In this document: piece by piece, positions 38,675 to 62,651 of the stretch | Position numbering within the stretch: position 1 is the first letter of the stretch | Layout: each line of letters starts with the position of its first letter | Origin: Gemmatimonadota bacterium | Lineage (GTDB): Bacteria; Gemmatimonadota; Gemmatimonadetes; Gemmatimonadales; GWC2-71-9 | NCBI GenBank assembly: GCA_041497135.1 | Contig: JBGQFX010000002.1 | Coordinates: 30,355 to 94,354 of the forward strand | DNA length: 64,000 nucleotides | Direction: 5' to 3' | The notes under the pieces: generated by a model | Told to the model about the DNA's origin: nothing | The model's database searches: none | What the model saw: only the letters and a program-made list of their open reading frames with translations | Made by a program: the position numbers and the translations under genes

Positions 38675-38710
38675 GGTTGGAAGGTTGGAAAGTTGGAAGG
38701 TTGGAAGGTG
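38675..38710. repeat. family A palindrome, left arm: 4.5 tandem octamers (GGTTGGAA)
   Basis: ggttggaa ggttggaa agttggaa ggttggaa ggtg. It starts 3 nt after the acyl-CoA dehydrogenase stop. 33/36 nt are identical to 60474..60509. Confidence 0.9.
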
Positions 38711-38713
38711 AAT

Positions 38714-39085
38714 TCAACGGAACATTGCTTCGTGGCGTCTAGCCGACTCATGCAAGCCCCAGGTGAGCTTGCCCGCAATACTTCTCAGCTCCTCCAACTC
38801 CGCGAATTGTTTCGCTGATAAGTAGGACAGTTCCTTCGATAGCAGGATCTGATAGCACAACTCCGCGAGCGAACCAAGGGCGATATCGAGGTAGCGTCGC
38901 AACGCTCGCGCTCCGCGCTTGGCGCTCCCCTCGGCGATATTCGAAGCAGTGGACACCGCGGCTCGACGCATCTGAACCACAAGTCCATAGCGTTCGGTAT
39001 CTGGGAAACTCGAAGTCACGCGGTAGGTCGCAATGGCAAGCACGTGACACGCCCGCCACGCGTCGAGACGCTCATAAGGCATCAT
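38714..39085 (-). CDS. four-helix-bundle protein (23S rRNA intervening-sequence protein / Avd-like family)
   Basis: 123 aa. YERLDAWRACHVLAIATYRVTSSFPDTERYGLVVQMRRAAVSTASNIAEGSAKRG...YLDIALGSLAELCYQILLSKELSYL is the signature of the TIGR02436-type family. Visibly lower GC than the flanking DNA. A TAGAAT -10-like box lies at 39106-39101 (reverse strand). Confidence 0.85.
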   Translation of the reverse strand: MMPYERLDAWRACHVLAIATYRVTSSFPDTERYGLVVQMRRAAVSTASNIAEGSAKRGARALRRYLDIALGSLAELCYQILLSKELSYLSAKQFAELEELRSIAGKLTWGLHESARRHEAMFR

Positions 39086-39163
39086 CGTACGATGGTGTGG
39101 ATTCTACCGACAAACCGCCAATTCAAAACCACTCAAGACACAACGAAACCACGCGAACTGCGT

Positions 39164-39216
39164 CACCTTCCAACTTTCCAACCTTCATCACCTTCCACCC
39201 TTCCAACCTTCCATCC
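39164..39216. repeat. family A palindrome, right arm: about 6 tandem complementary units (TTCCAACC variants)
   Basis: caccttcc aactttcc aaccttca tcaccttcc acccttcc aaccttcc atcc, the reverse complement of the left-arm units. It ends 4 nt before the stop of the convergent PRTase gene. Confidence 0.85.
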
Positions 39217-39220
39217 TGCA

Positions 39221-39877
39221 TCATGCCGCCTGGTGCGCAATCATGATGCTCTTCAGCCGCTCCGGACTGTCCCCCGACGCGTCCCCGTAGGGTGAGGGGT
39301 GCTGTTTATCGTCCGGCAGCACGTTGGGACAGATGAATTCATATCCGCGGGCCCGGATTCGCTCCGCGGCCGTGACGCTCGCGACCGGCGTGGCGATCGC
39401 GATCCGCTTCCCGCCCAATTCGGTGACGGCGCGCGCCGCGGCCAGCATCTTCCACGGAAACAGCACCTGGCCGTCCACGATGATCAGCTGGCGATCCTCG
39501 AACTTCTTGATCGGCCGCTGCGTGCGGTACAGCACCAGGTCGCGACGCACCCGGGCGCGCGATTCCTCGATCGCCGACTCGAGCTTCTCCACCAGGTTCA
39601 TCCCCGGCTGGAAATCCGGGTCCATCTCCGCCCGGCCGGCGAACTCCGCCATCGCCCCGATCGGGGCCAGATTGGCGCCAAGCCGGATGAAGGAAGCGAC
39701 CAGCACGTCGAAGCTGGCCCCCATGGCTTTCGAGGCGTTGGCCGCGATCTCCACCCCTTCGGGCGTCACACCCAGCAGCAGGCAGGAGACGTATCCCTGG
39801 GACGCCAGAAGCTGCCCCAACGCGGCGCCTGCGGCGGACCGGGTGGGATAGAGGCTGCTGCGGGGTGGCGTGGGCAC
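39221..39877 (-). CDS. phosphoribosyltransferase-family protein
   Basis: 218 aa. LIIVDGQV (PRPP-loop-like acidic/hydrophobic motif) in a type I PRT fold pattern. Confidence 0.7.
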   Translation of the reverse strand: MPTPPRSSLYPTRSAAGAALGQLLASQGYVSCLLLGVTPEGVEIAANASKAMGASFDVLVASFIRLGANLAPIGAMAEFAGRAEMDPDFQPGMNLVEKLESAIEESRARVRRDLVLYRTQRPIKKFEDRQLIIVDGQVLFPWKMLAAARAVTELGGKRIAIATPVASVTAAERIRARGYEFICPNVLPDDKQHPSPYGDASGDSPERLKSIMIAHQAA

Positions 39878-39949
39878 GATCTCAAAATAAGGGGATTGAG
39901 CGTTGAGAACAGAGGAACCATCTTCCCCCGCCCCCTTTTACGAGGCCTC

Positions 39950-42580
39950 ATGCGGTTCTGGTTGCTCATCCCGGTCATGGTATCCGCCCTCGTTCCAACC
40001 GGACTCGCGGCCCAGCGGCGCTCGGCACCGAGCCCCGTTCTGGCCGCCCGGCCTCTCGACACGTTGGTCTATCGGTCGCTCAAGTTCCGCGCGGTCGGCC
40101 CGGCCACCATGGGGGGGCGCATGTCCGCGTTCGCAGTGCGGGAGAACAACCCCGCCGTAATCTTCGCCGGCGCCGGTACCGGTGGCCTCTTCAAGACCAC
40201 CAACAACGGCACGACCTGGTCGGCCGTGTTCGAGGATCAACCGGTGGCGTCGATCGGCGCCGTTGCCACGTCGCCACGCGACTCGAACCTCGTGTGGGTC
40301 GGAACCGGCGAGGGCAACGGGCGCAACAGCTCGTCCTGGGGGAACGGCGTCTACAAGTCCAGCGACGGGGGCAGCAAGTGGACGCACGTCGGGCTCGACA
40401 ACTCACACGACATCCCCGCGCTGGTGATCGACCCGCGCAACGATTCCACCGTCTGGGTCGCGGTCCTGGGGCACCTCTGGGGCAGGAACCCCGAGCGCGG
40501 CGTTTACAAAACCGCCGACGGCGGCAAGACGTGGACGGCCGTGCTGCAGCTGGGCGACTCGGTCGGGGCGATCGACCTCGTGCTCGATCCCGCCAACCCG
40601 GATGTCGCCTACGCCGCCATGTACCAGCGGCTACGCGCGCCGTACTCGATGCGGAGCGGCGGGCCGGTGGGCGGCATCTACAAGACCACCGACGGCGGGA
40701 AGACCTGGACCAAGCTCACGGACGGCCTCCCCGCCCAGACCGGGCGCATCGGACTGGACCTCTACCGCAAGAACTCGCAGGTGGTCTACGCGGTGATCGA
40801 GTCCGATCTCGGCGGCCCCAGGGACATCGACGATGTCCGCAGCCGCGCCGGCGGGGTGTTCCGCTCCGACGACGGCGGCGCGCACTGGCGCCGGCTCTCC
40901 AACCTCGCGCCGCGCGCGTTTTACTTCGCCAAGGTTCGCGTCGACCCGACCAACGACGCGCACGTCTACATCCTCGGCTTCGGGCTCGACGTGTCCGACG
41001 ACAGCGGCCACAGCTTCCGCCACGATGGCGCCGAGAAGATCCACGGCGATCTGCACACGCTGTGGATCGATCCGGCGAATCCGAGCCACCTGATCCTCGG
41101 CACCGACGGCGGTATCTATTTCAGCTGGGACCGGAGCAAGACCTGGGACTTCGTCAACAACGTCGCCACCGGGGAGTTCTACGAGGTCACCTACGACTAC
41201 CGCACGCCGTACCGAATCTGCGGCGGCCTGCAGGACAACGGGAGCTGGTGCGGGCCGAGCCGGAAGCGTGCCGAGGACGGCATCGCGAACGGTGACTGGT
41301 TCCGGGTGGGGGATTGCGACGGCTATTACGTGCAGGTCGATTCGACCGACCCCGACATCGTGTACGCCGAGTGTCAGGGCGGGTACGCGTTCCGGGTGAA
41401 TCTGCGGAACGGGGCGAGCACGGCGATCAAACCGGTGCCCAAAGAAGGCACGCCGACGTTCCGGTTCAACTGGGACACGCCGTTCGCCATCTCCCACTTC
41501 GACCCGAGCGTGCTGTACATGGGCGGGAATCAACTGTTCCGGCTGACGGCGCGCGGCGATCGCTGGGAGATCATCTCCCCCGATCTCTCGACCATGAACC
41601 CGCTGACGATGACGACCACGGGCTCCAGCGCCGAGACCTACAACACGATCGTCGCGCTGTCCGAGTCGCCGCTCTCGCCCCGCATCCTCTGGGTCGGAAC
41701 CGACGACGGCAATATCCAGCTGACGCGAGACGGCGGCGCCAGCTGGACCAACGTCGCCGCGGCCCTGAAGGGTCTGCCGAAGGCAAACCTGTACGTCGCG
41801 CGCGTCGAGGCCTCGCATTTTGATTCCGCCACGGCCTACGTGGCCATCGACGGGCATCGCAGCGACGTGTTCCAGCCGCTCGTCTTCGTCACGACGGACT
41901 TCGGGCGCACCTGGACGTCGATCAGCGGCAACCTGCCCACCGATGCTCCGGTGAAATCGCTGCGCGAGGACCCGCGGAACAAGAACCTGCTGTTCGTGGG
42001 AACGGAGCACGCCCTGTTCTTTTCGATCGACCGCGGCACGAGCTGGAATCGCCTCAAGAGCGGCCTGCCCACGGTGGCCTACGACGACATCGCCATCCAC
42101 CCACGGGATCGGGACCTGATCGTCGGTACCCACGGCCGCAGCATCTACGTGCTCGATCAGATCATCGCGCTGGAGGAGCTGACACCGGCCATTCTCGACT
42201 CCACCGCGCATCTCTTCACCACGCGGCCGGTGCAGCCGTTCTGGAAGCTCGGCGAGTCCGGGCTGTGGGGCCATCGCCCCTATCAGGCCGCAAACCCGCC
42301 CGCCGGGGCCTACATCGACTACTACCTCAAGTCTTACGCGCTGGACGAGGTGTCGATCACGATCGCGGACAGCGCGGGTCACGAGGTGGCGAAGCTCACG
42401 GGAAGCCGCGATCCAGGCCTGAACCGCGTGGTGTGGGACCTGCAGCCCAAGGAATCGATTCGGACCGCCGGTCCCGGGGACCCGACGGAGTACGTCGCAC
42501 CGGGTGCCTACACGATCACGCTCAGCGCGGCCGGAAAGACGCTCAAGACGACGCTGCAGGTGGTGGCGCCGGAGCGATAG
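39950..42580 (+). CDS. secreted sortilin/VPS10-type BNR (Asp-box) beta-propeller protein
   Basis: 876 aa from ATG 39950 (MRFWLLIPVMVSALVPTGLAAQ). Repeated S-x-D-x-G-x-T-W Asp-boxes (TTNNGTTW, SSDGGSKW, TADGGKTW, TTDGGKTW, SDDGGAHW, TRDGGASW, TTDFGRTW, SIDRGTSW). Confidence 0.85.
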   Translation: MRFWLLIPVMVSALVPTGLAAQRRSAPSPVLAARPLDTLVYRSLKFRAVGPATMGGRMSAFAVRENNPAVIFAGAGTGGLFKTTNNGTTWSAVFEDQPVASIGAVATSPRDSNLVWVGTGEGNGRNSSSWGNGVYKSSDGGSKWTHVGLDNSHDIPALVIDPRNDSTVWVAVLGHLWGRNPERGVYKTADGGKTWTAVLQLGDSVGAIDLVLDPANPDVAYAAMYQRLRAPYSMRSGGPVGGIYKTTDGGKTWTKLTDGLPAQTGRIGLDLYRKNSQVVYAVIESDLGGPRDIDDVRSRAGGVFRSDDGGAHWRRLSNLAPRAFYFAKVRVDPTNDAHVYILGFGLDVSDDSGHSFRHDGAEKIHGDLHTLWIDPANPSHLILGTDGGIYFSWDRSKTWDFVNNVATGEFYEVTYDYRTPYRICGGLQDNGSWCGPSRKRAEDGIANGDWFRVGDCDGYYVQVDSTDPDIVYAECQGGYAFRVNLRNGASTAIKPVPKEGTPTFRFNWDTPFAISHFDPSVLYMGGNQLFRLTARGDRWEIISPDLSTMNPLTMTTTGSSAETYNTIVALSESPLSPRILWVGTDDGNIQLTRDGGASWTNVAAALKGLPKANLYVARVEASHFDSATAYVAIDGHRSDVFQPLVFVTTDFGRTWTSISGNLPTDAPVKSLREDPRNKNLLFVGTEHALFFSIDRGTSWNRLKSGLPTVAYDDIAIHPRDRDLIVGTHGRSIYVLDQIIALEELTPAILDSTAHLFTTRPVQPFWKLGESGLWGHRPYQAANPPAGAYIDYYLKSYALDEVSITIADSAGHEVAKLTGSRDPGLNRVVWDLQPKESIRTAGPGDPTEYVAPGAYTITLSAAGKTLKTTLQVVAPER

Positions 42581-42661
42581 ACTTTGGGAGACGGGAGGGA
42601 CAATGTCCTTCCGTCTCCTCCCCCCGTTATCTTCTCACGATTCACACTTCCCGGACCCGTC

Positions 42662-43944
<1,283 letters not shown>

Positions 43945-43948
<4 letters not shown>

Positions 43949-44060
43949 GACGTAAAGAAACAGCGTGGAGTTGGCGGCGTATGGAAAAGGCGTGCGTGAC
44001 CATACGCCTTTCTCCTTACGACGTCGCCCCCTACGACTTTTCCCTACGCAGTTGTCTTAT
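43945..44060. repeat. family B palindrome (B1) exactly filling the convergent gltA / helicase gap
   Basis: The outer clamp ATAAGAC (43945-43951) / GTCTTAT (44054-44060) contains both stop codons. Inside are GGCGTATGGAAAAGGCGT-type units on the left and ACGCCTTTCTCCTTACGAC / CCCCTACGAC / TCCCTACGC units on the right. The pairing is imperfect. Confidence 0.55.
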
Positions 44061-45274: not shown

Positions 45275-45293
45275 GTGAATCCTTATGCGATGA

Positions 45294-45389
45294 CTGCGTA
45301 GCGGGGAAAAACGTATGGGGCTACACCGTAGGGAGGACAGCGTACGTCTCTTCCGTACACAGTTACCCCCACGCTTTTCTCTCTACGCC
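45294..45389. repeat. family B palindrome (B2), degenerate, in the helicase 5' leader
   Basis: Left arm carries CGTAGCGGGGAAAAA / CGTATGGGGCTACAC / CGTAGGGAGGACAG units. A CGTACG centre sits at 45341-45346. Right arm carries TCTCTTCCGTACAC / AGTTACCCCCACGC / TTTTCTCTCTACGCC. Only about 70% complementary in the best register I found. Confidence 0.4.
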
Positions 45390-45503
45390 TTCGTTTTTGA
45401 ACCTAGGGATGAGCCTACAGATGTGAGGCCCGCTCCTGAGCGGGACCGTCCTACGGAAGGATGCCAGCTCGCGGTTCTTTCGACTGCGAGTGGAAGGCTA
45501 ACT

Positions 45504-45608
45504 ACGTCGAGGGAATACGTCAAGGAACGGCGTCGAGAAGAGGCGTCGAGACGTTCTCCTCGACGCATTTCCTTTCGACGCCTCTCCTCGATGTCGTTAC
45601 TTGACGCC
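45504..45608. repeat. family B palindrome (B3): four 13-nt units and their complements
   Basis: Left arm: ACGTCGAGGGAAT ACGTCAAGGAACG GCGTCGAGAAGAG GCGTCGAGA. Centre: cgt. Right arm: TCTCCTCGACGC ATTTCCTTTCGACGCC TCTCCTCGATGTC GTTACTTGACGCC. Core GCGTCGAG/CTCGACGC is perfect, and 45534-45549 versus 45575-45590 is 15/16 complementary. The right arm overlaps the last codons and stop (45597) of the 1130-aa gene. Confidence 0.8.
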
Positions 45609-48600
45609 GTTCGGCTCCCCTCCCCACCACCACATCGCCGGGAGCGCGCGCGACCTCGGCCACACCTCGTTCAGCGTCTCGCCCTCGTACAACCGGCCGT
45701 TCTTCATCACGTAGCGGATCGTGTTGCTGTTGTGGATGTCCTCCAGCGGATTGGCATCGAGCACGACGAGATCGGCGTACTTCCCCGGCTCGAGCGAGCC
45801 GAGGTCGGTGTCCATCCCGATGGCGCGCGCGCCGTCGATCGTGCCGATCCGGATCACCTCGAGTGGTGTGAGGCCGCCCGTGCTCATCGCCCACAGCTCC
45901 CAGTGACACCCGATGCCGTCCATCTCGCCGTGGCACCCCATGCCCACGTTGCCACCCGCGCGGAGGATCGTTCCCGCCGAGGCGGCGATACGATTGAAGA
46001 CGTACTGGTCGTCGCGGAACCACGCCCGGCGCTCGAAGCGCTCGTCCAACACGTCGTGCGGGACAAAGCGCCGCATCTTGGCGTCGCCGTGCCCGTTGTA
46101 GTGCTCGAAGAAATAGTCTTCACCGAACGGCCCGCCGTAGTTGACCAGCAGCGTCGGCGTGTAGGTGATGCCCGACTGGGCCGTCAACTGCACCGCGTCC
46201 TGGTACAAGGGCATCAACGGATAGCTGTGCTCGTGCCCAGGGTATCCGTCCAGCATCTCGGTCAGGTTCATCTTGAAATCGAGCCCGCCTTCGGTGGTGG
46301 GCATCAGGCCCAGCTCCCGGGCCGCCATGATCACCCACTGCCGCTGCTTGCGATTCCCCACCATGTACTGCTTGATCGTGTGAGTGTGGTAGAACTCGCT
46401 GTAGCGTCGCAGCGTATTCCGCGCGTCGTCCAGGCTCTGGAAGTTCTCGTCCCAGAAGACCCCCGGCCCGGTGTGATAGAGCCGCGGGCCGATCAGCTCC
46501 CCGGCCTCGATCTGGTCGGCGTAGGTGAGCACGTCCGTCGTCGCCGTCTGGGGATCGCGCACAGTAGTTATTCCCCAGGCGACGTTGGCGAGGTACTTCC
46601 ATACCTGCGTCTGATGCACGCCCCACGCCGCCCACGGGTGCGCGTGGACGTCCACCAGGCCAGGGATGATCGTCTTCCCCGTAACGTCGATGATGTGGGC
46701 GTTCGCCGGCACGCTGCCCCCGCCCTGGGGACCGACCCAGACGATCTTGTTGTCAGTGACCACCACGTCGCCGTGATCGATCACCTCGTCCCCCTTCATC
46801 GTGACGACCCGGGCCCCGCGCAAGACGACGGTGCCACGCGGAACGTCGCGGGATGTATGGATCACGACGTCGGTGCGCAGTCCTTCATAGGCCGGCAGTT
46901 TGGCGAGCGAATCGACTCGCGCCTTGGCCACCGAGTCGGGCTTCGGTTTGGTGCTGTCGGACTCCGCCTTCTTGAGCGAATCGGCCCGCACCGAATCCGT
47001 TGCCGTCTTCGCCTTCTCGGCCGAATCCGCCACGGCCGGATCCCAACGGAAAAAGCTCGCGCCGATGGACCAGATGGCGAGCTTGCCGTCGGCGCTCCAG
47101 CCGATGAAGTCGCCACCGATGCGCGTGAGCCGCTTGACGGGGAACGGCGCCGAGGACGGATCCGACACGTTGATGTTGGGCGTCTCGCCCCCGACCATGG
47201 GCAGCGTCACGCTGTACACGTTGTTGCCTTGCAAGGCGAGCACCCGATCGGTGTCGGGGCTGATGACGATCTCCGCAGCCGCGTCCGGCTCGGCGTTGGG
47301 CCCGGGATAGGTGTAACCGTTCACCTTGATGTGGGTGCGACGGTCCGTGCCGTCCCACCGCACGGAGACGAGCCCGTCGTTGCCGGCATAGTAGTAAATG
47401 CGATCGGTGTTGCGCGCGAACTGGGGACGTCCCCAGCCGTCGTAGGGCGTGATGCGCGTCGGCGCGCCACCCGCGGCGGGCACCCACACGAGATCGTAGC
47501 CCGGGCCGAAGCGCTCGTTGATGCGCGCCTGACGCGGCCCCTTCACCGCCACCACGCGCTGGCCGTCCGGAGACCAGACGGGCGTATCGAAGAACGCCGG
47601 GTCGGACACGAGACGCGCCCGCATCCGGCCGTCGGCGCGCACCTTCATCAGGGCGCCGCCCGTCGCGGACGTCCAGGTCACGTAGGCGACCCACTGTCCG
47701 TCAGGCGACCAGCCGGGCGCCTGCTCATGCACGGTGTCGTCGGTGAGCCGGCGCGGCGTGCCACCCGGGAGATCCAGGACGTACAGCTTGTCGAGCGCGC
47801 TGAACACGATGCGTTTGCCGTCGGGTGAGAGCTTCGTGTCGCGGATCTGCCGGACCTGCACCGCGCCGGTGTCCACGTGGTTCACGAAACGCACCAGCGG
47901 CCCCAGGCGCTGCTCCACGTGGGCCGTGAACGGAACCGGCGTGGCCTGGCCCGAAGCGATATCGATACGCCAGATCTTGCCGCCGTACGAAGTGATCAGC
48001 GCCTTGGAATCCGGGGTGAACGCGCTCCCGGGCTCGAGGTCACGCGTGAAGCGCGATTCCTGGTCGTCGCGGGTGACGGGATAGGCGAGCCATTTCTCGT
48101 CGCCGGTCGCGAGGTTGCGGAGCCGCAGTCCGGTTTCGGTGTCGTAGCGCGTGGCGTACACCAGCCATTTCCCGTCCGGCGACGGAATGGGCCGCATCGC
48201 ACTGCCGTACAGGTCGGTCTGCTCGAAGATCTTGCCCGTCTGGCGGTCGTAGATCGCCACCTGCCACAACGGGAAATTCAGATCGTAGCCGAAGCCGCCA
48301 CGGTGGCGGGATACCCACACGTACCGTGGGTCGGCGCCGAACGCCGCGCCCAGGGTGTTCCAGCCGGGGCCACGGAACGGGCCGCTTCCCGGGCCGCCCG
48401 CCGCCGCCTTGATCATCGCCGTCCCCGATCCGCCATCCTTGTGGTACAGCCACAGCTCGTACACGCTGCCCAGCACGCCCGTCGTGCGTGACGCGACGAT
48501 GTAGTTGCCGTCGGGAGTCCACTCGGGACTCGCGTACAGGTTGTTCCCGCCCTTGGTGAGCGTCTTCGGGCTCTTCCCGTCCGTGTCACAAGTCCAGATT

Positions 48601-48989: not shown

Positions 48990-49032
48990 AGGAACTCCCA
49001 GATTGGAAGAATGACGGACGAACGCAGAAACT

Positions 49033-49144
49033 GAAGGCGTATGGAGAAGGCGTCAAGCGAAAGGCGTATGGAAGAACCGTATGGACGTAAGCAGTGTACG
49101 GTTCCTCCCTACGTTTCAACCCCCTACGCCATTCTCCCTACGTC
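49033..49144. repeat. family B palindrome (B4)
   Basis: Left arm: GAAGGCGTATGGA GAAGGCGTCAAGC GAAAGGCGTATGGAA GAACCGTATGGAC. Loop: gtaagcagtgtacgg. Right arm: TTCCTCCCTACGT TTCAACCCCCTACGCC ATTCTCCCTACGTC. It lies between the SURF1 stop (49124, inside the right arm) and the start of the TolB-amidohydrolase gene (48989). Confidence 0.75.
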
Positions 49145-49813
49145 GTTCTCTTCGCGAGCTCTCTTCCTGAGCAACGCCGCCGTCCCCACCACCGCAATCC
49201 CCGCAAAACTGAACCACTGGATCGCGTACGACAGGTGGGGCCCGTCGTCGAGCGGCGGGGTGCGCCATCGCGCCAGCCCTGCCGGATGCGCGGCGGCGGT
49301 GTCGTCGAGCTGGATCACGATCGGCAGCACCGCATAGGGCAGCGAATCGCGCAGCCGGGCCGGATCGACATCACCCCGGTCGCGCGGCGCCAGCAGCGCA
49401 AGCCCGGCGATGGCGACGCTATCCCCTTCGCGATAGCGTGTCGCGTCGATGTGGCGGGCGTCGGCGGACGGCACCCAGCCGCGATCCACGAACACCGCCG
49501 ACCCGTCGGCCAGGCGAAGCGGGGTCAAGAGCGCCACACCCGGCGCGCCATGATAGGTGCGACCCGCCCACACCCGCTCGTGCGCGTAGTCGTAAACGCC
49601 GAGCGCCGTGGCGCGCCGGTCGCGCAAGGCATCGGGGTCGAGGTGCGCCGTCGGGAGCACGACCGGCGACAGCGCGCGAGCCGCCGCGATCTCGGCGTTC
49701 CGAGCGCGTCGCTCCTGCAGCCGATGCAGCTGCCAGAACCCGAGCCGGACGAAGAGCGCGGCCAGCGACAACGCCACGGCCGCGCCGAGCAGATCGCGCC
49801 AGCGCAGCCTCAC
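49124..49813 (-). CDS. SURF1-family (cytochrome oxidase assembly) protein
   Basis: 229 aa. N- and C-terminal TM helices. WQLHRLQERR and YAIQWFSFA are SURF1 signatures. The GTG start forms a GTGA overlap with the GIY-YIG stop. Confidence 0.85.
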   Translation of the reverse strand: MRLRWRDLLGAAVALSLAALFVRLGFWQLHRLQERRARNAEIAAARALSPVVLPTAHLDPDALRDRRATALGVYDYAHERVWAGRTYHGAPGVALLTPLRLADGSAVFVDRGWVPSADARHIDATRYREGDSVAIAGLALLAPRDRGDVDPARLRDSLPYAVLPIVIQLDDTAAAHPAGLARWRTPPLDDGPHLSYAIQWFSFAGIAVVGTAALLRKRAREENDVGRMA

Positions 49814-50076
49814 GGCCCAACCTGCACAAGTCGGAGTTTCGCCGCTCTCGGCAGCCGCTTGATCTCAGCCTCCCGCCGCAGCGCCGCCCCGCGACTCGCA
49901 CGCGGCTCGCGGTATACGACGCGCACCGGCAGCCGGGAGCGCGTGTAGGCACTCCCCTTTCCCGTGCGGTGTGCCGCCAGCCGCCGCTCGAGATCGTTGG
50001 TCACACCGGTGTAGAGGGAGCCGTCACGGCAACGCAGCATGTAGACGAGCCACGCCTTTACTTTCCAACCTTCCAA
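49810..50076 (-). CDS. GIY-YIG nuclease-family small protein (UPF0213-like)
   Basis: WLVYMLRCRDGSLYTGVTNDLERRLAAHRTGKGSAYTRSRLPVRVVYRE...REAEIKRLPRAAKL is the canonical GIY-YIG core. The start is uncertain: the first in-frame start upstream of the beta-1 strand is TTG 50076, inside the octamer repeat, and the next ATG (50040) would truncate the fold. Confidence 0.78.
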   Translation of the reverse strand: MEGWKVKAWLVYMLRCRDGSLYTGVTNDLERRLAAHRTGKGSAYTRSRLPVRVVYREPRASRGAALRREAEIKRLPRAAKLRLVQVGP

Positions 50077-50088
50077 CCTTCCAACCTG
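50061..50088. repeat. family A half-palindrome (three octamer units) at the 5' end of the GIY-YIG gene
   Basis: ctttccaa ccttccaa ccttccaa cctg, which is GGTTGGAA x3 on the gene strand. I found no complementary arm. Confidence 0.8.
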
Positions 50089-50090
50089 CT

Positions 50091-51377
<1,287 letters not shown>

Positions 51378-53635: not shown

Positions 53636-53638
53636 CGC

Positions 53639-55629: not shown

Positions 55630-55646
55630 TCTCATAGGAGCTCCGC

Positions 55647-57524
55647 ATGTTCGCTTTGCTTACCGTCACCGCGTTCGCGCTCCAGTCTCCCGTCGCCGAC
55701 ACCTCCCCGTTTCGGGCGCTTGCGCTGCCGAGCGCGTCCCGGGTACGCTCGAGCTCGGGCGCCCCGGGACCCGACTATTGGCAGCAGGAAGCGAGCTATA
55801 CGATCCGGGCCAGCCTGGACACCGGCTCGAGCCTGCTCACGGGCACGGAGACGATTCACTATGTGAATCACTCGCCCGACGCGCTCGAGTTCGTGTGGGT
55901 GCAGATCGAGCAGAACATCTCGGCCCAGAACAGCATCACGTATCAGCTGAATCAGCCACCGTTGCACTTCGCCGGCGGCGCCGTCTTCGATTTCACAGCC
56001 AAAGGGTTCATCGGCGGGATCGGGATCGACCGCTTCGCCGCGGCCGGCAAGGAGCTGACCCGGACCGAGTACGGCACCATGATGCGGGTCGAGCTGCCGG
56101 CGCCGCTCGCGGCGGGCGCCGCGATCGATTTCGACGTGGCGTGGCACTTCCCAGTCCCGCCCTATGGCAGCGGCCGCATGGGCCGGGTCGGCAACCGCCT
56201 GTACGAGATCGCCCAGTGGTACCCGCGTCTGGTGGTGTACGACGACGTGAACGGCTGGAACCCCCTGCCCTACATCGGCGCCGGGGAGTTCTATCTCGAG
56301 TACGGGAACTACGACGTCAGTCTCACGCTCCCGGCGGGATACGTCGTCGCGGCGACCGGCACGGTGCAGAATCCCACCGAGGTGTGGTCGCCGGCACTGC
56401 GGCAGCGGCTCGAGCAGGCGAAAACCGCCATCGACCGCGTACAGGTCGTCACCAAGGCCGAAGCGACGGCCAACGGCACGCACGCCACGGCCGGTCTGAA
56501 GACGTGGCACCTCACCGCCACCACCGTGCGCGACTTCGCCTGGGCCGCCTCGCCCGATTTCCGGTGGGACGCGAGTGGGTGGAACGGCGTGCAGATCAAC
56601 ACGTTCTACCGCCCCAGCGCCGCGCCGTGGGAAGAAGCGAACCGGATGGCGCGGTTCACGATTCAGCACTTCAGCGAAACGTGGCGCATGTATCCGTGGC
56701 CGCACGCCACGACCGTCGAAGGCCTGATCGAAGGCATGGAGTATCCGATGCTCACCTTCGTGCCGTCGATCGAGAAACGCGAGGATCAATTCTGGGTGCT
56801 GATGCACGAGTTCGGGCACGAGTGGTTTCCGATGATCGTCGGCTCCGACGAGCGGCGCTTTCCGTGGATGGACGAAGGCTTCAACACCTTCATCGACTAC
56901 GGGGCCGCCGAGGGATACTTCAAGGGGACCGCCTACGGCGACACCGTGCGGCGCGAGCTGCTCACGGCGTTTCAGGTCTCCGCCATCCCGGGCAACGAAC
57001 AACCGCTGATCACCAAGCCGGTCGAGCAGCGCGACCTGGCGTGGGGCGCCTACCAGAAGCCGGCGTTGATGCTCACCGTGCTGCGCGATCACGTCCTAGG
57101 ACGCGAGACCTTCGAGCGCGCCATGCGCGAATACGTGCGGCGCTGGGAATTCAAGCATCCTCAGCCGGCCGACTTCTTCCGCACCATGGCGAACGTGAGC
57201 GGGCGGGACCTGGACTGGTTCTGGCGTGGCTGGATCTACACGACGGCGCGACTCGATCAGGCGGTCGACTCGGTGCGTGCCGTCGCCGGCGATTCGACCT
57301 ACGTCTATCTCTCGAACCGGGGCCAGATGGTGCTGCCGGTGACGCTCGAGCTGCGCTACGCCGACGGGTCGCGCGAGACGCGCCAGCTCCCCGTGGAGAT
57401 GTGGAACCTAGGCGACCGCTTCACGGCCCGATTCGCGACGCCGAAATCGGTGACGGGTGTCGTGGTGGATCCGACGGCGAGTCTGCCGGATGTGAATCGG
57501 GGGAATAATCAGTGGAGGAACTGA
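55647..57524 (+). CDS. M1-family zinc metallopeptidase (secreted)
   Basis: 625 aa. Signal peptide, and HEFGHEWFPMIVGSDERRFPWMDEGF (HExxH-x18-E). Confidence 0.92.
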   Translation: MFALLTVTAFALQSPVADTSPFRALALPSASRVRSSSGAPGPDYWQQEASYTIRASLDTGSSLLTGTETIHYVNHSPDALEFVWVQIEQNISAQNSITYQLNQPPLHFAGGAVFDFTAKGFIGGIGIDRFAAAGKELTRTEYGTMMRVELPAPLAAGAAIDFDVAWHFPVPPYGSGRMGRVGNRLYEIAQWYPRLVVYDDVNGWNPLPYIGAGEFYLEYGNYDVSLTLPAGYVVAATGTVQNPTEVWSPALRQRLEQAKTAIDRVQVVTKAEATANGTHATAGLKTWHLTATTVRDFAWAASPDFRWDASGWNGVQINTFYRPSAAPWEEANRMARFTIQHFSETWRMYPWPHATTVEGLIEGMEYPMLTFVPSIEKREDQFWVLMHEFGHEWFPMIVGSDERRFPWMDEGFNTFIDYGAAEGYFKGTAYGDTVRRELLTAFQVSAIPGNEQPLITKPVEQRDLAWGAYQKPALMLTVLRDHVLGRETFERAMREYVRRWEFKHPQPADFFRTMANVSGRDLDWFWRGWIYTTARLDQAVDSVRAVAGDSTYVYLSNRGQMVLPVTLELRYADGSRETRQLPVEMWNLGDRFTARFATPKSVTGVVVDPTASLPDVNRGNNQWRN

Positions 57525-57526
57525 CG

Positions 57527-57603
57527 TGATCGGTCATCGGTGATCAGTATTCGGTGGTTCGATGCCTATGACCGATCACCGATGACCGATGACCGATGAC
57601 CGA
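57527..57603. repeat. family C palindrome (C2): five heptamer units per arm
   Basis: Left arm TGATCGG TCATCGG TGATCAG TATTCGG TGGTTCG; right arm ATGACCG ATCACCG ATGACCG ATGACCG ATGACCG. 57529-57545 pairs perfectly (17 bp) with 57574-57590. It fills the convergent gap between the M1 stop (57524) and the pntB stop (57604). Confidence 0.85.
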
Positions 57604-59010
57604 CTAGTGGAGGCCACCGCCAGCGAACTGCTTCACCAGGTCGCCGATCACCCCTTTGGCGTCGCCGAACAGCATCCAGGTGTTGTCCAGCACGTACAGC
57701 TCATTGTCGATCCCGGCGAATCCGGGTTTCTTGCTCCGTTTGATCGCCAGCACGGTCCGGGCCTTGTCCGCGTCGATGATCGGCATGCCGTAGATCGGTG
57801 AGTCCTTGGCATAGCGGGCGGCCGGGTTCACGACGTCGTTCGCGCCGATCACGAGCGCCACGTCGCACTGCGGCATTTCCGGATTGATCTCGTCCATCTC
57901 GACCAGCGCCGTGTACGGGATGTCGGCTTCGGCGAGCAGCACGTTCATGTGCCCCGGCATGCGGCCGGCGACGGGATGGATGGCGAACTTGACCATGACG
58001 CCGCGCTTGGTGAGCTGATCGTACAGCTCGCGCACCTTGTGCTGCGCCTGCGCCACCGCCATGCCGTACCCGGGAATGATGACCACGAGCCGCGCCTGCT
58101 CCAGCAGCTGCGCCGCGCCCTCGGGCGATTCCTGCTTCCACACCCGCTGCTCCTCGGATGCCTTCGCCTTTTGCACCGTGCCGAACGCGCCGAACAGCAC
58201 GTTCGTGAACGAGCGGTTCATGGCCCGGCACATGATGATCGACAGGATGAGACCGCTCGAGCCGTCGAGCGCCCCCGCGGTCACCAGCAGCTTGCTGTCC
58301 AGCACGAACCCCATCGCCACCGCCGCCAGTCCGGCGTAGGAGTTCAGGATCGAGATGACGGTGGGCATGTCGGCGCCGCCGATCGGGATGATGAGCAGCA
58401 CCCCGAACAGCACGGCGAGGCCGATGATGATCGGGAAGACGGTGGTCGCCCATGGAGCGGTCGGGTGCAGCACCAACATCACGCCGAGCACGCCGGCGGC
58501 CGCCAGCACGCCCAGGTTGACGAAGTTCTGCCCTGGATACGTGACCGGGCGTTGCGGGATCCACTTCACTTCCTGCAGCTTCCCGGCCGCCATGAGGCTG
58601 CCGGTGAACGTGAGGAAGCCGAGGATCACTTCGACGACGAGAGCGCTCATCCGGAAGATCGTGAAATGCTCCGGGCCCTCCCGCAGCCACAGGTAGTACT
58701 CTGCCGTGCCGACGAGGCCCGCCGCGAGCCCGCCGAACGCGTGCGACAGCGCCGTCCGCTGCGGCACCGCCGTGAGCGGCACGCGGGACAGCGGCACCCC
58801 CACGAGGAATCCAGCGGCAATGGCGAGTAGGATCCAGCCGTGGTGCACGATCGCTGGCTGGATCCATGTCGCCAGGACGGCGACGGCCATTCCCGCCACG
58901 CCCGCGTACACGCCCCGGCGCGCGCTCTTCGGATCGTTCATCCAGTAGAGCGCGAAAATGAACAGCGCCGTCGCGGCGATGGCCGCGAACTGCCCGATCG
59001 CCTGGGTCAT
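57604..59010 (-). CDS. pntB: NAD(P) transhydrogenase subunit beta
   Basis: 468 aa. Multi-TM N-terminal half and a C-terminal dIII NADP(H) domain (GYGMAVAQAQ, AIHPVAGRMPGHMNVLLAEA). Confidence 0.95.
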   Translation of the reverse strand: MTQAIGQFAAIAATALFIFALYWMNDPKSARRGVYAGVAGMAVAVLATWIQPAIVHHGWILLAIAAGFLVGVPLSRVPLTAVPQRTALSHAFGGLAAGLVGTAEYYLWLREGPEHFTIFRMSALVVEVILGFLTFTGSLMAAGKLQEVKWIPQRPVTYPGQNFVNLGVLAAAGVLGVMLVLHPTAPWATTVFPIIIGLAVLFGVLLIIPIGGADMPTVISILNSYAGLAAVAMGFVLDSKLLVTAGALDGSSGLILSIIMCRAMNRSFTNVLFGAFGTVQKAKASEEQRVWKQESPEGAAQLLEQARLVVIIPGYGMAVAQAQHKVRELYDQLTKRGVMVKFAIHPVAGRMPGHMNVLLAEADIPYTALVEMDEINPEMPQCDVALVIGANDVVNPAARYAKDSPIYGMPIIDADKARTVLAIKRSKKPGFAGIDNELYVLDNTWMLFGDAKGVIGDLVKQFAGGGLH

Positions 59011-59285
59011 TGTTTCTTGAACATCTTGAGCATGCGGTCGGTGATCAGGAACCCACTGACGATGTTCGTCATCGAGGCGAACAGGGCCACGCCGCCCAGG
59101 ATGCGGATGGTCGTTGGGTAGTCGGCGCCGACCACGACGAGGGACCCGACCACGGCGATCGCCGAGATGGCGTTCGTCAGCGACATGAGCGGCGTGTACA
59201 GCAGTCGTGACACGCGCCGGATCACACCCAGCCCGATGAACGTGGCGAGCACGAACACGAATAACATCGACCAGTAGTCGGTCAT
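59007..59285 (-). CDS. pntA: NAD(P) transhydrogenase subunit alpha part 2 (membrane dII segment)
   Basis: 92 aa from ATG 59285, with an ATGA overlap with the upstream gene. Three TM helices (LTNAISAIAVVG). Confidence 0.88.
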   Translation of the reverse strand: MTDYWSMLFVFVLATFIGLGVIRRVSRLLYTPLMSLTNAISAIAVVGSLVVVGADYPTTIRILGGVALFASMTNIVSGFLITDRMLKMFKKQ

Positions 59286-60373
59286 GACTTGAGCACCTTT
59301 CCGTCGTGGGTCACGCACGTCCCCTTGGTGATCTCGTCGGTGAAGTCGAGCTGGAGCTTGCCCTCCTTCACGAGGTGAGTCAGGAAGCTCCATACGTTCC
59401 GGGCGTACATCTGGCTCGCGTGCAGCGGCAGGGTGGCGGGGAGATTGGTGGGCCCGAGGATCGTGACGCCCTGGTGCTCCACGGTTTTCCCGGCCTGTGT
59501 CAGCTCGCAGTTTCCGCCCGTCTCGGCCGCCAGATCCACGATCACCGCGCCCGGACGCATCCCGTCGACCGCCGCCCGCGTGACGAGGATCGGCGCGCGC
59601 TTCCCGGGAATCGCCGCGGTCGTGATCACCACGTCGGCGTCCCTGACGCTCTTGGCCAGGAACTCGAGCTCGCGCCGATGCTGGTCTTCCGAGAGCTCCT
59701 TGGCATAGCCCCCGGCTCCTTCGGCCTCCACCTGCTGTTCCATCGCGAGAAACTTGGCGCCCAGGCTCTCGACCTGTTCTTTCACCGCGGGTCGCACGTC
59801 GAACGCGGACACAATGGCGCCGAGCCGGCGGGCCGTGGCGATCGCCTGCAGGCCCGCAACCACGGCGCCCAGCACCAGGACGCGGGAAGGCGACAGCGTG
59901 CCGGCGGCGGTCACGAGCATCGGGAAGAACTTCGGCACCGTCTCGGCGGCCAGCAGGACGGCCTTGTAGCCCGCGGCGGTGGCCTGCGAGGAGAGTACAT
60001 CCATCGCCTGGGCGCGGGTGATCCGGGGCAACAACTCGAGGCTGAAGGCGGTGATGCGTCGTTGAGCCAGCTGCTGAACGAGATCGGCGCTCGTGGCGGC
60101 TTGCAGCAGCCCGACCAGGGCGGCGCCCTCTGTCAACCTGCCGACCTCAGCGGGGCTCGGTTTCTGGACCTTGCAGACGATCTCGGCGGTCCACGGGTCG
60201 CCCAGGCTCGCGCCGGCCGAGCGGTAGGCGTCATCCGTGAAGCCGGCGGAGACGCCCGCTCCTCCCTCTACCAGAACCTGATGCCCGTCTTTCACCAGTT
60301 TCGCGACCGTGTCGGGTACCAGCGCGACACGGCGCTCGCCGGCGACAGTCTCTTTCGGGACTCCGAACTTCAT
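59282..60373 (-). CDS. pntA: NAD(P) transhydrogenase subunit alpha part 1 (dI, alanine-dehydrogenase-like)
   Basis: 363 aa. MKFGVPKETVAGERRVAL and VLVLGAVVAGLQAIATARRLGA (Rossmann). Confidence 0.93.
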   Translation of the reverse strand: MKFGVPKETVAGERRVALVPDTVAKLVKDGHQVLVEGGAGVSAGFTDDAYRSAGASLGDPWTAEIVCKVQKPSPAEVGRLTEGAALVGLLQAATSADLVQQLAQRRITAFSLELLPRITRAQAMDVLSSQATAAGYKAVLLAAETVPKFFPMLVTAAGTLSPSRVLVLGAVVAGLQAIATARRLGAIVSAFDVRPAVKEQVESLGAKFLAMEQQVEAEGAGGYAKELSEDQHRRELEFLAKSVRDADVVITTAAIPGKRAPILVTRAAVDGMRPGAVIVDLAAETGGNCELTQAGKTVEHQGVTILGPTNLPATLPLHASQMYARNVWSFLTHLVKEGKLQLDFTDEITKGTCVTHDGKVLKS

Positions 60374-60461
60374 CCGACCCTCGTGTTGTGCGCGGTGTGA
60401 GGAAAGTACAAGGTATGGTTAAAGATGAAAGGTTGATTGAAGCGGCGTTAAAGGCATCTTT

Positions 60462-62561
60462 ATGCGAATGAGCGGATGGAAGGTCGGAAAGTTGGAAGGT
60501 TGGAAGGTCGGGACGTTCCTGCTTTCCGTCTTTCCAACATTCCACCTTTCGGCCCAGTGTCCCGACGGCTCCCCACCGCCGTGCCAGCGCAGCCCGGCTC
60601 CGCCCCGCGTTACGATCGACTCCAACGCCGTCGCGATCCTGCCCTTCCGCGTGAGCGGCCCGCCCGAAGCGCAGTACCTCCGGGAAGGGATGGTGGATCT
60701 CCTCAACGTCGCGCTCGATGGTCTCGCCGGGTGGCGGGTCATCCAGCCACGAGCGTTTCTCCGCCAGGTGAGCGCCGGCGGGGGCGACATCGACGTCCCG
60801 CAAGCTGCCCGCCTCGCGCGCGCCGCCGGTGCCGCGACCTTCGTGCTCGGCAATGTGGTCTCACTCGGTCCGGAGATCCGGGTCCAGGCCGCCCTCTACG
60901 AGTCGACGCGGGGGACATCGCTCGCGTCGGTCCGGGCGCGCGGCGCGGTGGCCCTTCCGGCGCCCGTCGCTGACAGCATCGCCGGGGGCTTGGCGCGACA
61001 GCGGCTCGTGCTGCACGCCGGCGGAACGCGCCACGCCCTCGAGGAATACACGACGACGTCGCCGGTCGCCCTGCAAGCCTATCTGATCGCCGAGCAATTG
61101 GCGCGACACGCTCGATGGCAAGAGGCCGCGGAGAGTCTGACGGTTGCCATCGCGCTCGATTCGACATTCGCCCTGGCCTACTATGGCTTGTACCGGGCGA
61201 TCAGCTGGGGCAACTCCGGACCGATCCTCCAGCAAGCGTCAGGCCGGGCGATTACCCCATACACGATCGATGAGGTGATCCAGGCGGCGCTGCGGCATCT
61301 CGATCGCGCGCCGCCACGCCAGCGGCGGCTGCTCGAGTACGCGTCCGCAACCAATCGCGCCGATGCGCTGCGGCTCGCGGACGGCCTGACGCGGGACTAT
61401 CCGGACGATGCCGATGCCTGGCTGGAGCGTGGCGACGCGTACTTCCATATCGGTTTGGAGAGCGGTGAGCCGCCAACGATTGCGCTCGAGAGTCTGGAAC
61501 GCGCCATCGCGCTCGATCCCCAGGTCCCCGAAGCCTATCTGCACGTGGTCCAGCTGCGCAGCATGCTGGGCGACAGCGCCGGGGCCTGGCAAACGCTCGA
61601 TCGGTTACGCGCCATGGCCTCGACGTGGGAGGCCACCGTCGGATTGGATCTCGCCATGCGCGCCTGGTGGCGAGGAACGGACCCCGCATCGCTCACGGCT
61701 CCGAGCTCCGAAATCGCCTCGATTATTGGGCGTTACCTCCTGCTCATCGGAGACCCATCGCCGGCACGGGCCGTGGCACTCGCCGATTCATTCGCTGTGC
61801 TCGCAGCCACGCCGGATCGCGCCCCCGCCGAGCGCGTGACGGCGCTGCTGCGGGGCCAGGTCTACCATCTCGCCCAGGGGCGACACGCCAGCGCCTGGGA
61901 GCTGCTGCGGCAGGCCGCGGTGCTGGACCCGGCCGGCCAAGAAGTCCTGGGTGCCACGGTGTTGCACCACCTGGTGACCGGCACGCACGCTTCGGAAGCC
62001 GCCGATGCAGCGCGCCAACTGGCGTCGTCGCCAGGGACGTTGCCGTGGTGGGCGGCTGCAGTGCTTGCGTGGCGGGCCGCCGTCACCGAAGCGACGGACT
62101 CAGCCGCAAACACCGTGCGTCAACTGCTCTCCGCCGGGGAGTACGCGACGTTTCGGTCGGCGCTCGGGGACGGACTCTTGGGGCTGGTGTCGCTTCGGGT
62201 CGGAGATACCGTCACGGCACGCCGTGAGCTGGCGCGGGGCAATGTCGCCTGGGTCGAGACCCGCAACATCGAGAAATTCCTTCCCACCCCGGTCCTGGGC
62301 CTCGAGACGGCGCGGCTCGATGTGCGAGCGGGTGATCTCGATGTGGCGAGCCGCCGGCTGTACGAGACCACCGGACCGATCGGCGTCATGTTCCGCGCTC
62401 AAGCCGAGGAGCTGCGCGGCCAGATCGCTCTGCAACGGGCGGACACCGCGGCGGCGATCCGCGCCTACCACAACCTCGTCGACCTGTGGCGGGATGCAGA
62501 TCCCGGGCTGCAGCCACGCGTCGCCGCGGCGCGGGCGGCGTTGGCGAGGCTGGGAAGGTGA
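60462..62561 (+). CDS. TolB-N-like + TPR repeat protein with CPDGSPPPC N-terminal motif
   Basis: 699 aa; the start is uncertain because ATG 60462/60468 and TTG 60492 all lie in or next to the palindrome. ...FLLSVFPTFHLSAQCPDGSPPPCQR, AILPFRVSG...DLLNVALDG, then multiple TPR-like helices to the C-terminus. Confidence 0.8.
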   Translation: MRMSGWKVGKLEGWKVGTFLLSVFPTFHLSAQCPDGSPPPCQRSPAPPRVTIDSNAVAILPFRVSGPPEAQYLREGMVDLLNVALDGLAGWRVIQPRAFLRQVSAGGGDIDVPQAARLARAAGAATFVLGNVVSLGPEIRVQAALYESTRGTSLASVRARGAVALPAPVADSIAGGLARQRLVLHAGGTRHALEEYTTTSPVALQAYLIAEQLARHARWQEAAESLTVAIALDSTFALAYYGLYRAISWGNSGPILQQASGRAITPYTIDEVIQAALRHLDRAPPRQRRLLEYASATNRADALRLADGLTRDYPDDADAWLERGDAYFHIGLESGEPPTIALESLERAIALDPQVPEAYLHVVQLRSMLGDSAGAWQTLDRLRAMASTWEATVGLDLAMRAWWRGTDPASLTAPSSEIASIIGRYLLLIGDPSPARAVALADSFAVLAATPDRAPAERVTALLRGQVYHLAQGRHASAWELLRQAAVLDPAGQEVLGATVLHHLVTGTHASEAADAARQLASSPGTLPWWAAAVLAWRAAVTEATDSAANTVRQLLSAGEYATFRSALGDGLLGLVSLRVGDTVTARRELARGNVAWVETRNIEKFLPTPVLGLETARLDVRAGDLDVASRRLYETTGPIGVMFRAQAEELRGQIALQRADTAAAIRAYHNLVDLWRDADPGLQPRVAAARAALARLGR
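60474..60552. repeat. family A palindrome, complete and 'empty' (8-nt loop)
   Basis: Left arm ggatggaa ggtcggaa agttggaa ggttggaa ggtcggga (60474-60513). Loop cgttcctg. Right arm ctttccgt ctttccaa cattccac ctttcgg (60522-60552). About 70-75% Watson-Crick pairing, plus G-U pairs. It lies over the 5' end of the TPR gene. Confidence 0.8.
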
Positions 62562-62567
62562 GACGGC

Positions 62568-62651
62568 GGTTGGGCGGATGGGCGGATGGGCGGATGGTGG
62601 CATTGGCCACCGCGTTTCTATCCGCCTATCCGACCATCCGACCATCCGTCC
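62568..62651. repeat. family A-variant palindrome (unit GGATGGGC / complement GMCYATCC)
   Basis: Left arm ggttgggc ggatgggc ggatgggc ggatggtg (62568-62599). Apex GGTGGC-attg-GCCACC. Right arm gcctatcc gaccatcc gaccatcc gtcc (62624-62651). It contains ATG 62594 of the next gene. Confidence 0.7.

Follow-up and report, generated by a model that had tools for sequence, protein, structure and literature searches.

Intervening sequences (IVS) of 23S rRNA that carry an open reading frame (ORF) occur in Leptospira and, with the 'S23p' ORF, in Coxiella burnetii, and the PF05635 family is named after them. They sit in helix 25 or 45 of the 23S rRNA with the ORF between long complementary arms that pair as a stem, they are cut out by RNase III, and their presence varies between relatives. 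We examined a stretch of 64,000 nt (the window) of a metagenome-assembled genome (MAG) of a Gemmatimonadota bacterium (assembly GCA_041497135.1, contig JBGQFX010000002.1, 30,355-94,354 of the forward strand; position 1 is the first letter), in which a first-pass annotation had proposed ten loci of one palindrome design built from short tandem units. One of these loci, A1 (38675/39164), resembles the 23S rRNA IVS in having a PF05635/TIGR02436 ORF between complementary arms that fold together into a single long stem. Unlike them, it is not inserted in 23S rRNA but separates the gene of an acyl-CoA dehydrogenase from a convergent protein-coding gene, and its arms are tandem arrays of short units. 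We interpret the loci as a dispersed, fast-turning-over family of IVS-like cassettes together with gene-less derivatives, a reading to which we assign a probability of roughly 60%.

The cargo gene of A1 (38714-39085, minus strand) codes for 123 aa that matched PF05635 (E 6.6e-29) and TIGR02436 (E 1.6e-26); according to these profile matches it is a four-helix-bundle protein of the 23S rRNA intervening-sequence protein family. The gene lies exactly between the GGTTGGAA and TTCCAACC arrays, and the two arms, when folded as one molecule joined through a GAAA loop, reached -56.9 kcal/mol (z -10.5). An association of the palindromes with a four-helix-bundle ORF had been put forward for testing, and it turned out to be strong. 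With an alignment of two homologues as query we recovered 80 metagenome loci (37-64% identity, G+C 0.37-0.70). A gene was counted as bracketed when the alignment of its upstream flank to the reverse complement of its downstream flank exceeded the score of the best of 20 shuffles by 8 points or more. An inverted repeat bracketed the gene in 57 out of the 74 loci with sufficient flank, and the bracketing arms were nearly always arrays of 7-10-nt units, some of them resembling family C of the window (GGCTATC in L102, CCGATGT in L144/L153; L numbers denote loci of relatives or homologues from other genomes or metagenomes). No 23S motifs were present at any of the 80 homologue loci. The 5' arm contained more G than C in 46 of the 49 non-redundant gene-flanking pairs (p ~7e-13), and most of the 8-, 10- and 13-nt hairpins in loci syntenic with the window likewise have a G-rich 5' arm, while 7-nt units showed no G skew. 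Since a palindrome reads alike on both strands, this rule is independent of gene orientation. We found no paper in which PF05635 genes are described as lying within a pair of inverted tandem arrays.

The closest solved structure to the A1 protein was PDB 2gsc, which is XCC0516 of Xanthomonas campestris (E 9e-24), and a GGGAATC array overlaps the XCC0516 start codon in a table of Rehm et al. 2015 (PMC4692102). These authors described G-quadruplex-forming heptamers, GGGAATC in Xanthomonas campestris and axonopodis and GGGGA(C/T)T in Nostoc. The Xanthomonas heptamers are intergenic and occur singly or as 70-75 'convergent' opposite-strand pairs, the length of the repeats varies between relatives, their function is given as unknown, and the study makes no link to the four-helix-bundle family or to mobility (PMC4692102). 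Families A and B of the window share with these heptamers the intergenic G-rich tandem units in convergent pairs and the orientation rule, but the window units measure 7, 8 or 13 nt and have other sequences, and the 7-mers of family C are not G-rich. Similarly, Aklujkar et al. 2009 (PMC2700814) reported in Geobacter metallireducens opposite-strand site pairs (classes 1-3, tens of loci) of four or five tandem octa- or heptanucleotides each, with a variable distance between partners, and read them as IHF/HU-type binding sites ('global regulator binding sites'). These paired tandem sites are like the window hairpins in design; the study contains no cargo gene, no comparison of orthologous sites and no link to four-helix-bundle proteins.

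The loci of the window, arranged in families A (around GGTTGGAA and 8-mers), B (13-mers or CGT anchors) and C (7-mers), are as follows:

A1, left arm, 38675..38710: 4.4 copies of GGTTGGAA, beginning 2 nt past the acyl-CoA dehydrogenase TGA (Tandem Repeats Finder (TRF), fold of the joined arms)
A1, right arm, 39164..39217: ~6 degenerate TTCCAACC copies that run to 3 nt before the stop codon (39221-23) of the convergent 218-aa gene (TRF)
B1, 43945..44057: hairpin filling the convergent gap between citrate synthase and the DEAD-box gene, CGT anchors every 13-14 nt (z -4.1)
B2, 45290..45400: hairpin between the start of the DEAD-box gene and a conserved non-coding core, CGT anchors every 14-15 nt (z -4.3)
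B3, 45506..45612: hairpin of GGCGTCGAGAAGA-type 13-mers, overlapping the PD40-amidohydrolase stop (45597) (z -7.2)
B4, 49033..49160: hairpin of GAAGGCGTATGGA 13-mers, right arm coding for the last ~11 SURF1 codons and the stop (z -4.3)
A2, 50061..50087, minus strand: lone (GGTTGGAA)3 array between the stop of the Cys/Met pyridoxal phosphate (PLP) enzyme and the GIY-YIG gene (TRF)
C1, 55573..55629: hairpin of CGGTCAT-type 7-mers, from the GMC oxidoreductase stop (in the stem) to the M1 peptidase start (z -8.6)
C2, 57526..57603: hairpin of ATGACCG 7-mers, exact fill of the convergent gap between M1 peptidase and pntB (z -5.4)
A3, 60474..60552, plus strand: hairpin of GGAAGGTT 8-mers within the 5' end of the TPR1 ORF (z -6.2)
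A4, 62565..62651, plus strand: hairpin of GGCGGATG 8-mers just past the TPR1 stop and within the 5' end of the TPR2 ORF (GTG 62558) (z -7.7)

The common palindrome design held for nine hairpin designs, each folding as one long stem (minimum free energy between -40 and -66 kcal/mol; z between -4.1 and -10.5 relative to 100 mononucleotide shuffles); A2 has no complementary partner array and hence is a lone array, not a palindrome. In the same way, the short loop described between the arms fits eight loci, which are long hairpins, and fails at 38675/39164, where the 'loop' measures 455 nt and holds the gene. The loci nevertheless form one architectural class as the first-pass annotation had it, with units that vary from locus to locus, yet two matching arms at each locus. 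TRF called arrays at 38675, 39165, 49033, 50063, 55598, 57560, 60477, 62565 and 62620, and an inverted-repeat finder returned the arm pairs 45518/45575, 55573/55606 and 57526/57571. TRF made no call at 43945 and 45294, where the periodicity consists of a CGT anchor every 13-15 nt with a variable purine filler. When a 100-nt fold was slid along the whole window, 5 of the 8 strongest outliers were these loci. We also aligned the reverse complement of each tandem array to the following 80 or more nt, with distant segments as controls: six loci (45555, 49033, 55598, 57560, 60477 and 62565/62620) scored 28-38, against a 99th percentile of 22.4 in the controls. A stricter scanner that required TRF arrays on both sides returned 1-2 pairs only, because the second arms are degenerate.

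Such hairpins were also present at the same gene junctions, with other units and with empty sites in close relatives, in 24 syntenic Gemmatimonadales loci (70-95% protein identity) that we recovered by searching species-representative genomes with the Cys/Met enzyme. The best syntenic relatives of the window were Gemmatimonadales MAGs. Arrays with a partner numbered 49 in 499 kb of Gemmatimonadales loci, versus 2 marginal ones in 853 kb of loci from other phyla found with the same query. The junction between acyl-CoA dehydrogenase and the 218-aa gene gave a clean comparative series of filled, decayed, replaced and empty states:

Window: GGTTGGAA arms and the four-helix-bundle gene
L001, the closest relative: the arms seen in the window, with two units per arm and a 55-nt gene remnant between them
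L021, a distant relative: a 53%-identical homologue between 8-mer arms that differ from those of the window, GACGGGTA x4 and TACCCGTC x3
L002 and L009: 10-mer hairpins without a gene
L020 and L023: arrays around an inner hairpin instead of the gene, with a T run after it in L020
L005: empty, the two stop codons overlapping as CTAG

The 55-nt remnant of L001 is near-identical to 38912-38965 of the window, which shows that a filled copy can evidently decay to a nearly empty hairpin. Judging from the series, several unit families have occupied this one near-zero spacer, in two cases together with a gene.

Turnover was seen at other junctions as well. At the GMC-M1 junction, 11 out of the 12 relatives that hold it have a hairpin or array of 7-nt units, as in the window, and the units vary (CGGTCAT, CAGCTAT, CAGACAT, CGGCTTT, GCGGATT); in L008 the site is empty, with a 30-nt spacer. 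The DEAD-citrate synthase junction contains 13-nt-unit hairpins in the window, L005-L007, L009 and L012, and is empty in the closest relative L001 (15 nt) and in L002 (40 nt); the empty form was also found on the contig of a relative in the RNA/metagenome run X26 (X numbers denote public sequencing runs). The PD40-DEAD spacer has a conserved core of ~85 nt with hairpins on both sides, whose units measure 8, 10, 11 or 13 nt depending on the genome. At the position of the 13-mer hairpin B3, L001 has instead a hairpin of GGCGGATG 8-mers. Units were 85-93% identical inside arrays versus 68-71% between the consensus units of different genomes at one junction, and the latter value barely exceeds that of best-rotation matching of random 7-mers. 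Some homogenisation of units and arms is needed to account for these identities. Within genomes, unit sharing between two junctions was concordant in about half of the genomes.

Family A itself is dispersed within the community. The left arms of 38675 and 60474 are identical in register at 34 of 36 positions, with the variant unit AGTTGGAA third in both, and they are closer to each other than either is to its own partner arm. In the runs X1-X4 the A arms were covered at 3-6 times the depth of their flanks and adjoined a wide variety of flanks; both A arms also occurred together, around loops of 26 and 34 nt, on contigs as long as 4.6 kb. By these depths and joins, family A is a multi-copy repeat with filled and empty members.

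Our interpretation has the following parts. The complete form would be a ~540-bp cassette consisting of a PF05635/TIGR02436 gene between two complementary short-unit arrays, and the gene-less hairpins would be internally deleted or non-autonomous relatives of such cassettes. In a compact genome the inserts would lodge at gene ends, where spacers are close to zero, and would enter the neighbouring transcripts as long stems; where they overlap ORFs, they would be translated, as proposed for the signal peptides of the TPR proteins, the tail of SURF1 and the start of the GIY-YIG protein. The architecture, the association of gene and arms in many lineages, the decay, the presence and absence at orthologous sites and the multiple copies of the A arms are seen directly in the comparisons. 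Copying between loci with common arms is the mechanism of spread that we prefer: arrays of one unit would serve as homology between loci, the short-looped palindrome would be cut during replication by host hairpin nucleases of the SbcCD type and repaired from a filled or an empty copy, and slippage together with arm-to-arm repair would keep units and arms alike. Binding of the units by the four-helix-bundle protein is putative.

Several observations weigh against this interpretation. No transposase, excision or insertion event was seen, and comparison of filled with empty sites gave no target-site duplication that could be trusted beyond 1-2 nt. We know of no nuclease or recombinase activity of the four-helix-bundle protein. 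Each junction retains its period class from species to species (7 nt for pntB-M1 and for GMC-M1; 13 nt for SURF1-PD40 and for DEAD-citrate synthase), a pattern that vertical descent with concerted change would explain no less well than repeated colonisation. Some arrays are alone or lopsided (50061; 6 vs 2 units in L018; 3 vs 1 in L009), and the extra copies of A arms in the sequencing runs may belong to relatives and not to the genome of the window. Finally, no cargo for the 13-nt family was present in any fetched locus; family B is placed in the class by its design only and may be a separate thing.

The first-pass annotation had suggested concerted generation of the arms by slippage or template switching, and the need for homogenisation agrees with that part of it. 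Taken further, the arrays could have been written in place and never moved, with the four-helix-bundle gene as a passenger or helper. They could arise by polymerase slippage followed by fold-back copying, or through an activity that adds G-rich tandem units to the 3' end on either side of a break and would thereby yield the layout 5'-(G-rich)n...(C-rich)n-3' in one step. Such writing would suit the G-rich 5' arm in 46/49 pairs and in most 8-, 10- and 13-nt syntenic hairpins, the lone arrays directly after stop codons, the lopsided arms, the perfect homogeneity of the array at 50063 (100% by TRF), and the outermost left-arm bases of L007, which are complementary to sequence present in the empty L008 site. 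Nevertheless, a purely local origin leaves several results unexplained, because the arms of A1 and A3 share the same order of variant units (34/36), because both A-type arms recur together around other loops (26 and 34 nt) on other contigs, and because one junction bears unrelated unit families in different species. Moreover, the 7-nt units have no G skew, no candidate enzyme adjoins any locus, and an association of gene and arms in 57/74 loci would be hard to obtain by chance capture. We consider writing in place unlikely, at about one chance in a handful.

Under another explanation the hairpins are host RNA elements under selection (terminators, stabilisers of 3' ends or RNase III sites) and the tandem units are a by-product of stem growth. 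The position of the loci bears on this. As had been claimed from the sequence, they lie at gene boundaries with stop or start codons inside: the hairpins occupy spacers, and we located stop codons within them (TAA 43946-48, TAA 55574-76, and the SURF1 stop 49124-26 in the right arm) as well as start regions in or at hairpins or arrays (TTG 50074-76, ATG 60462, GTG 62558). The outer stem of B1 contains both the citrate synthase and the DEAD-box helicase stop codons. Most loci are directly 3' of at least one stop codon, and three occupy the gap between converging genes; the stability of the stems is very high, many species have hairpins at the same junctions, and L020 and L023 have classical structures of hairpin plus T run within the arms at the A1 junction, all of which would be expected of RNA elements. 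Against this, the hairpins have no U tracts and no site of a terminator scan is a whole hairpin, A3, A4 and B2 are at 5' ends or within ORFs, and the empty sites in the closest relatives imply that the hairpins are dispensable. Selection on the stem accounts neither for the periodicity nor for the enclosed gene, and we regard this explanation as decidedly improbable.

The arrays might also be binding sites for a chromosomal or regulatory protein, one unit being one site, as proposed for Geobacter metallireducens (PMC2700814), a precedent with which the regular spacing of a conserved core, e.g. CGT every 13-15 nt, would agree. This is very improbable, since units differ between close relatives at one site and between sites in one genome, the neighbouring genes have no common function, and sites are freely gained and lost.

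The possibility of chance or of an assembly artefact (collapsed or fold-back reads), a concern because the genome is a MAG and palindromes are a known assembly hazard, is close to negligible given the exact match in contigs of two runs from different samples and studies, the presence of the design in 20+ independently assembled relatives, and fold z values and scanner scores far beyond the controls. In particular, Logan contigs of the runs X1 and X2, one of which may be the sample from which the window was assembled, spanned six loci with 0 differences, covering C1 and C2, B1, B2 and B3, and the whole gene-bearing stretch 38300-39548; the six loci were thus reproduced exactly, and the relatives with the same design had been assembled separately. 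One X1 contig swaps part of C2 (57569-57602) for GCGACCGGCGACCGGTGACTGC, another 7-mer unit, probably from a co-occurring relative.

We also compared the loci with other repeat classes. Repetitive extragenic palindromes and their composites (REP/BIME/REPIN; Di Nocera et al. 2013, PMC3733652) are small multi-copy extragenic palindromes, mostly downstream of genes, strain-variable, sometimes intragenic and thought to be non-autonomous mobile DNA; a REP has one stem of 5-13 bp tagged GTAG or CGTC and is tied to a Y1 transposase (RAYT). The window hairpins are likewise small extragenic palindromes, mostly downstream of genes, variable and sometimes inside genes, but their arms measure 25-60 nt with a periodicity of 7, 8 or 13 nt, and the sole linked gene is that of the four-helix-bundle protein. 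The exclusion of REP/BIME by the first-pass annotation is upheld by the lack of a single tagged short stem: neither tag is found in families A and C, and in B the motif CGTA/CGTC recurs within every unit and not once terminally. General domain scans of the window ORFs turned up no RAYT. Its exclusion of CRISPR was equally sound, the units being contiguous and the arms inverted, and the domain scans of window ORFs found no cas domains. Miniature inverted-repeat transposable elements have terminal inverted repeats, a target-site duplication and a related autonomous element with a transposase gene; at our loci we observed inverted arms and a filled relative with a deletion derivative, no clear duplication between filled and empty sites, and a sole cargo that is not a known transposase.

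The Ssn GIY-YIG nucleases (Chenal et al. 2025, PMC11893778) are encoded by a tiny single-domain gene flanked by NTS/SRM hairpin repeats, and SRM repeats are also dispersed without the gene. The window resembles this system in having a tiny gene flanked by hairpin repeats that occur gene-less too, and it does contain a GIY-YIG gene; in Ssn/SRM, however, the repeats flank a cd10448-type GIY-YIG gene on both sides, whereas the gene of the window is accompanied by an array on a single side and keeps its synteny in all 24 relatives. The SRM pattern had 1 match in the window versus 0.83 +/- 0.69 in shuffles, not at a hairpin, and was rejected. Two further candidates were set aside: the intrinsic terminator consensus, with 13 sites versus 8.0 +/- 2.9 in shuffles, corresponding at the loci to weak apical sub-stems of three hairpins only, and the Avd protein of diversity-generating retroelements (NF033474, 19.5 bits versus a cut-off of 80, with no reverse transcriptase among the neighbours). 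A search of Rfam over 38-64 kb at E <= 0.1 gave only a chance microRNA-like match to the 60478 hairpin and left the core at 45.4 kb unmatched, and PADLOC had no match for either small protein.

No such loci were present in 1-38.6 kb at the sensitivity of the fold scan and the array scanner, in agreement with the first-pass annotation; the only structural outliers there (24881 and 33641) were GC-rich coding sequence without unit arms. The further suggestion that this absence reflects a different history of a metal island is weak, and a single window is not enough to demonstrate it. Metal genes occur only within ~1.7-24 kb, where they encode a YHS protein, a heavy-metal P-type ATPase and a CusA/CusB/OEP pump; a sigma-54 regulator also lies in the left half, unrelated transport and hydrolase genes follow beyond ~24 kb, and G+C is equal in both halves of the window. 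Most left-half genes overlap or abut, so the left half offers few spacers to fill. The occurrence of ten out of ten loci in 40% of the window has a probability of ~1e-4 under a uniform per-kb rate, the proper denominator being the number of spacers. In the segment 10000-17500, G+C is lower (0.635-0.654) and the third-position G+C signal is weaker than elsewhere, and a simple gene caller based on third-position G+C was unreliable at 9-18 kb; should the left half contain foreign DNA, this segment would be the candidate.

The genes around the loci are:

36792-38672, plus strand: acyl-CoA dehydrogenase
38714-39085, minus strand: 123-aa PF05635/TIGR02436 four-helix-bundle gene
39221-39877, minus strand: conserved 218-aa gene
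up to 42580, plus strand: BNR/sortilin protein
42584-43948, plus strand: citrate synthase
44057-45274, minus strand: DEAD-box helicase
45597-48989, minus strand: PD40-amidohydrolase
49124-49813, minus strand: SURF1
49810-50076, minus strand: 88-aa GIY-YIG protein
50091-51377, minus strand: Cys/Met PLP enzyme
53639-55576, plus strand: GMC oxidoreductase
55647-57524, plus strand: M1 peptidase
57604-60373, minus strand: pntB, pntA2 and pntA
from 60462 and from 62558, plus strand: two TPR paralogues (TPR1 and TPR2)

Several of these genes draw coding sequence from the hairpins. The 60474 hairpin translates as MRMSGWKVGKLEGWKVGTFLLSVFPTFHLSA followed by QCPDGSPPPC, and the encoded stretch looks like a signal peptide. 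In the TPR1 orthologue of L002 the frame, GWKVG and LSAQCPDGSPPPC are kept while the symmetry of the DNA is largely lost, which argues for translation of the hairpin. By hand translation, TPR2 begins in or before the 62565 hairpin and runs on into QCPDGSPPPC. The starts of TPR1 (60462-60560) and TPR2 (62558-62660) are both signal-peptide-like and hairpin-encoded, followed by a shared (L/F)(S)AQCPDGSPPPC, and the two hairpins use different units (GGAAGGTT versus GGCGGATG). The C-terminal end of SURF1 and its stop lie in the right arm of 49033. For the 88-aa GIY-YIG protein (PF01541, E 7.8e-15), the sole in-frame start found is TTG 50074-76, inside the 50063 array.

An association of the palindromes with the GIY-YIG gene had also been put forward for testing, and the gene turned out not to be cargo of a palindrome: it resides at the same position in all 24 syntenic relatives, and the GGTTGGAA array upstream of it is present in the window and L001 only. 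The GIY-YIG stop overlaps the SURF1 start (GTGA), and in the window alone a 9-nt direct repeat, GCAGGTTGG (minus strand), lies at each end of the gene. The 218-aa gene next to A1 is kept in relatives, with the C-terminus ..SIMIAHQAA. In most relatives it directly adjoins citrate synthase without a BNR/sortilin gene; the 3-kb BNR/sortilin gene between the two (window ~39900-42580) was found only in the window, L006 and L007. At the convergent junction of pntB and M1, where the window has hairpin C2 only, L003-L005, L007, L012 and L015 contain 1.6-3.4 kb of extra DNA. Finally, the non-coding core between B2 and B3 (45394-45479, ~85 nt) is near letter-for-letter the same in all relatives having the spacer, a TTGACG-type -35-like box lies upstream of it on the minus strand in most relatives, and in contigs of two RNA runs the depth over the core exceeded that of the flanks. 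The core may be a small RNA or form the leader of the DEAD-box helicase gene.

For annotation, the inserts give ordinary genes their stops, starts, C-terminal tails and signal-peptide-like N-termini, and they make gene ends vary between close relatives. A more far-reaching proposal, which we hold to be doubtful and offer tentatively, is that PF05635 cassettes and empty hairpins are a separate, phylum-spanning kind of selfish DNA without a transposase of its own. The short-looped palindrome would be a self-made fragile site open to host hairpin nucleases, and repair templated by any copy with matching arms would spread the cargo, which would thus 'home' via the palindrome surveillance of the host; the protein would be a unit-reading specificity or protection factor. 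If this were true, it would account for how rRNA intervening sequences and bacterial heptamer repeats arose, and the G-rich 5' arm would be a footprint of the mechanism. If our interpretation of the loci as IVS-like cassettes and their gene-less derivatives is right, three things become one object: the ORF-bearing 23S rRNA IVS, the very numerous 'four helix bundle protein' genes that have no assigned function, and the hitherto unexplained tandem repeats, that is, the over-abundant heptamers and octamers of Xanthomonas, Nostoc and Geobacter.

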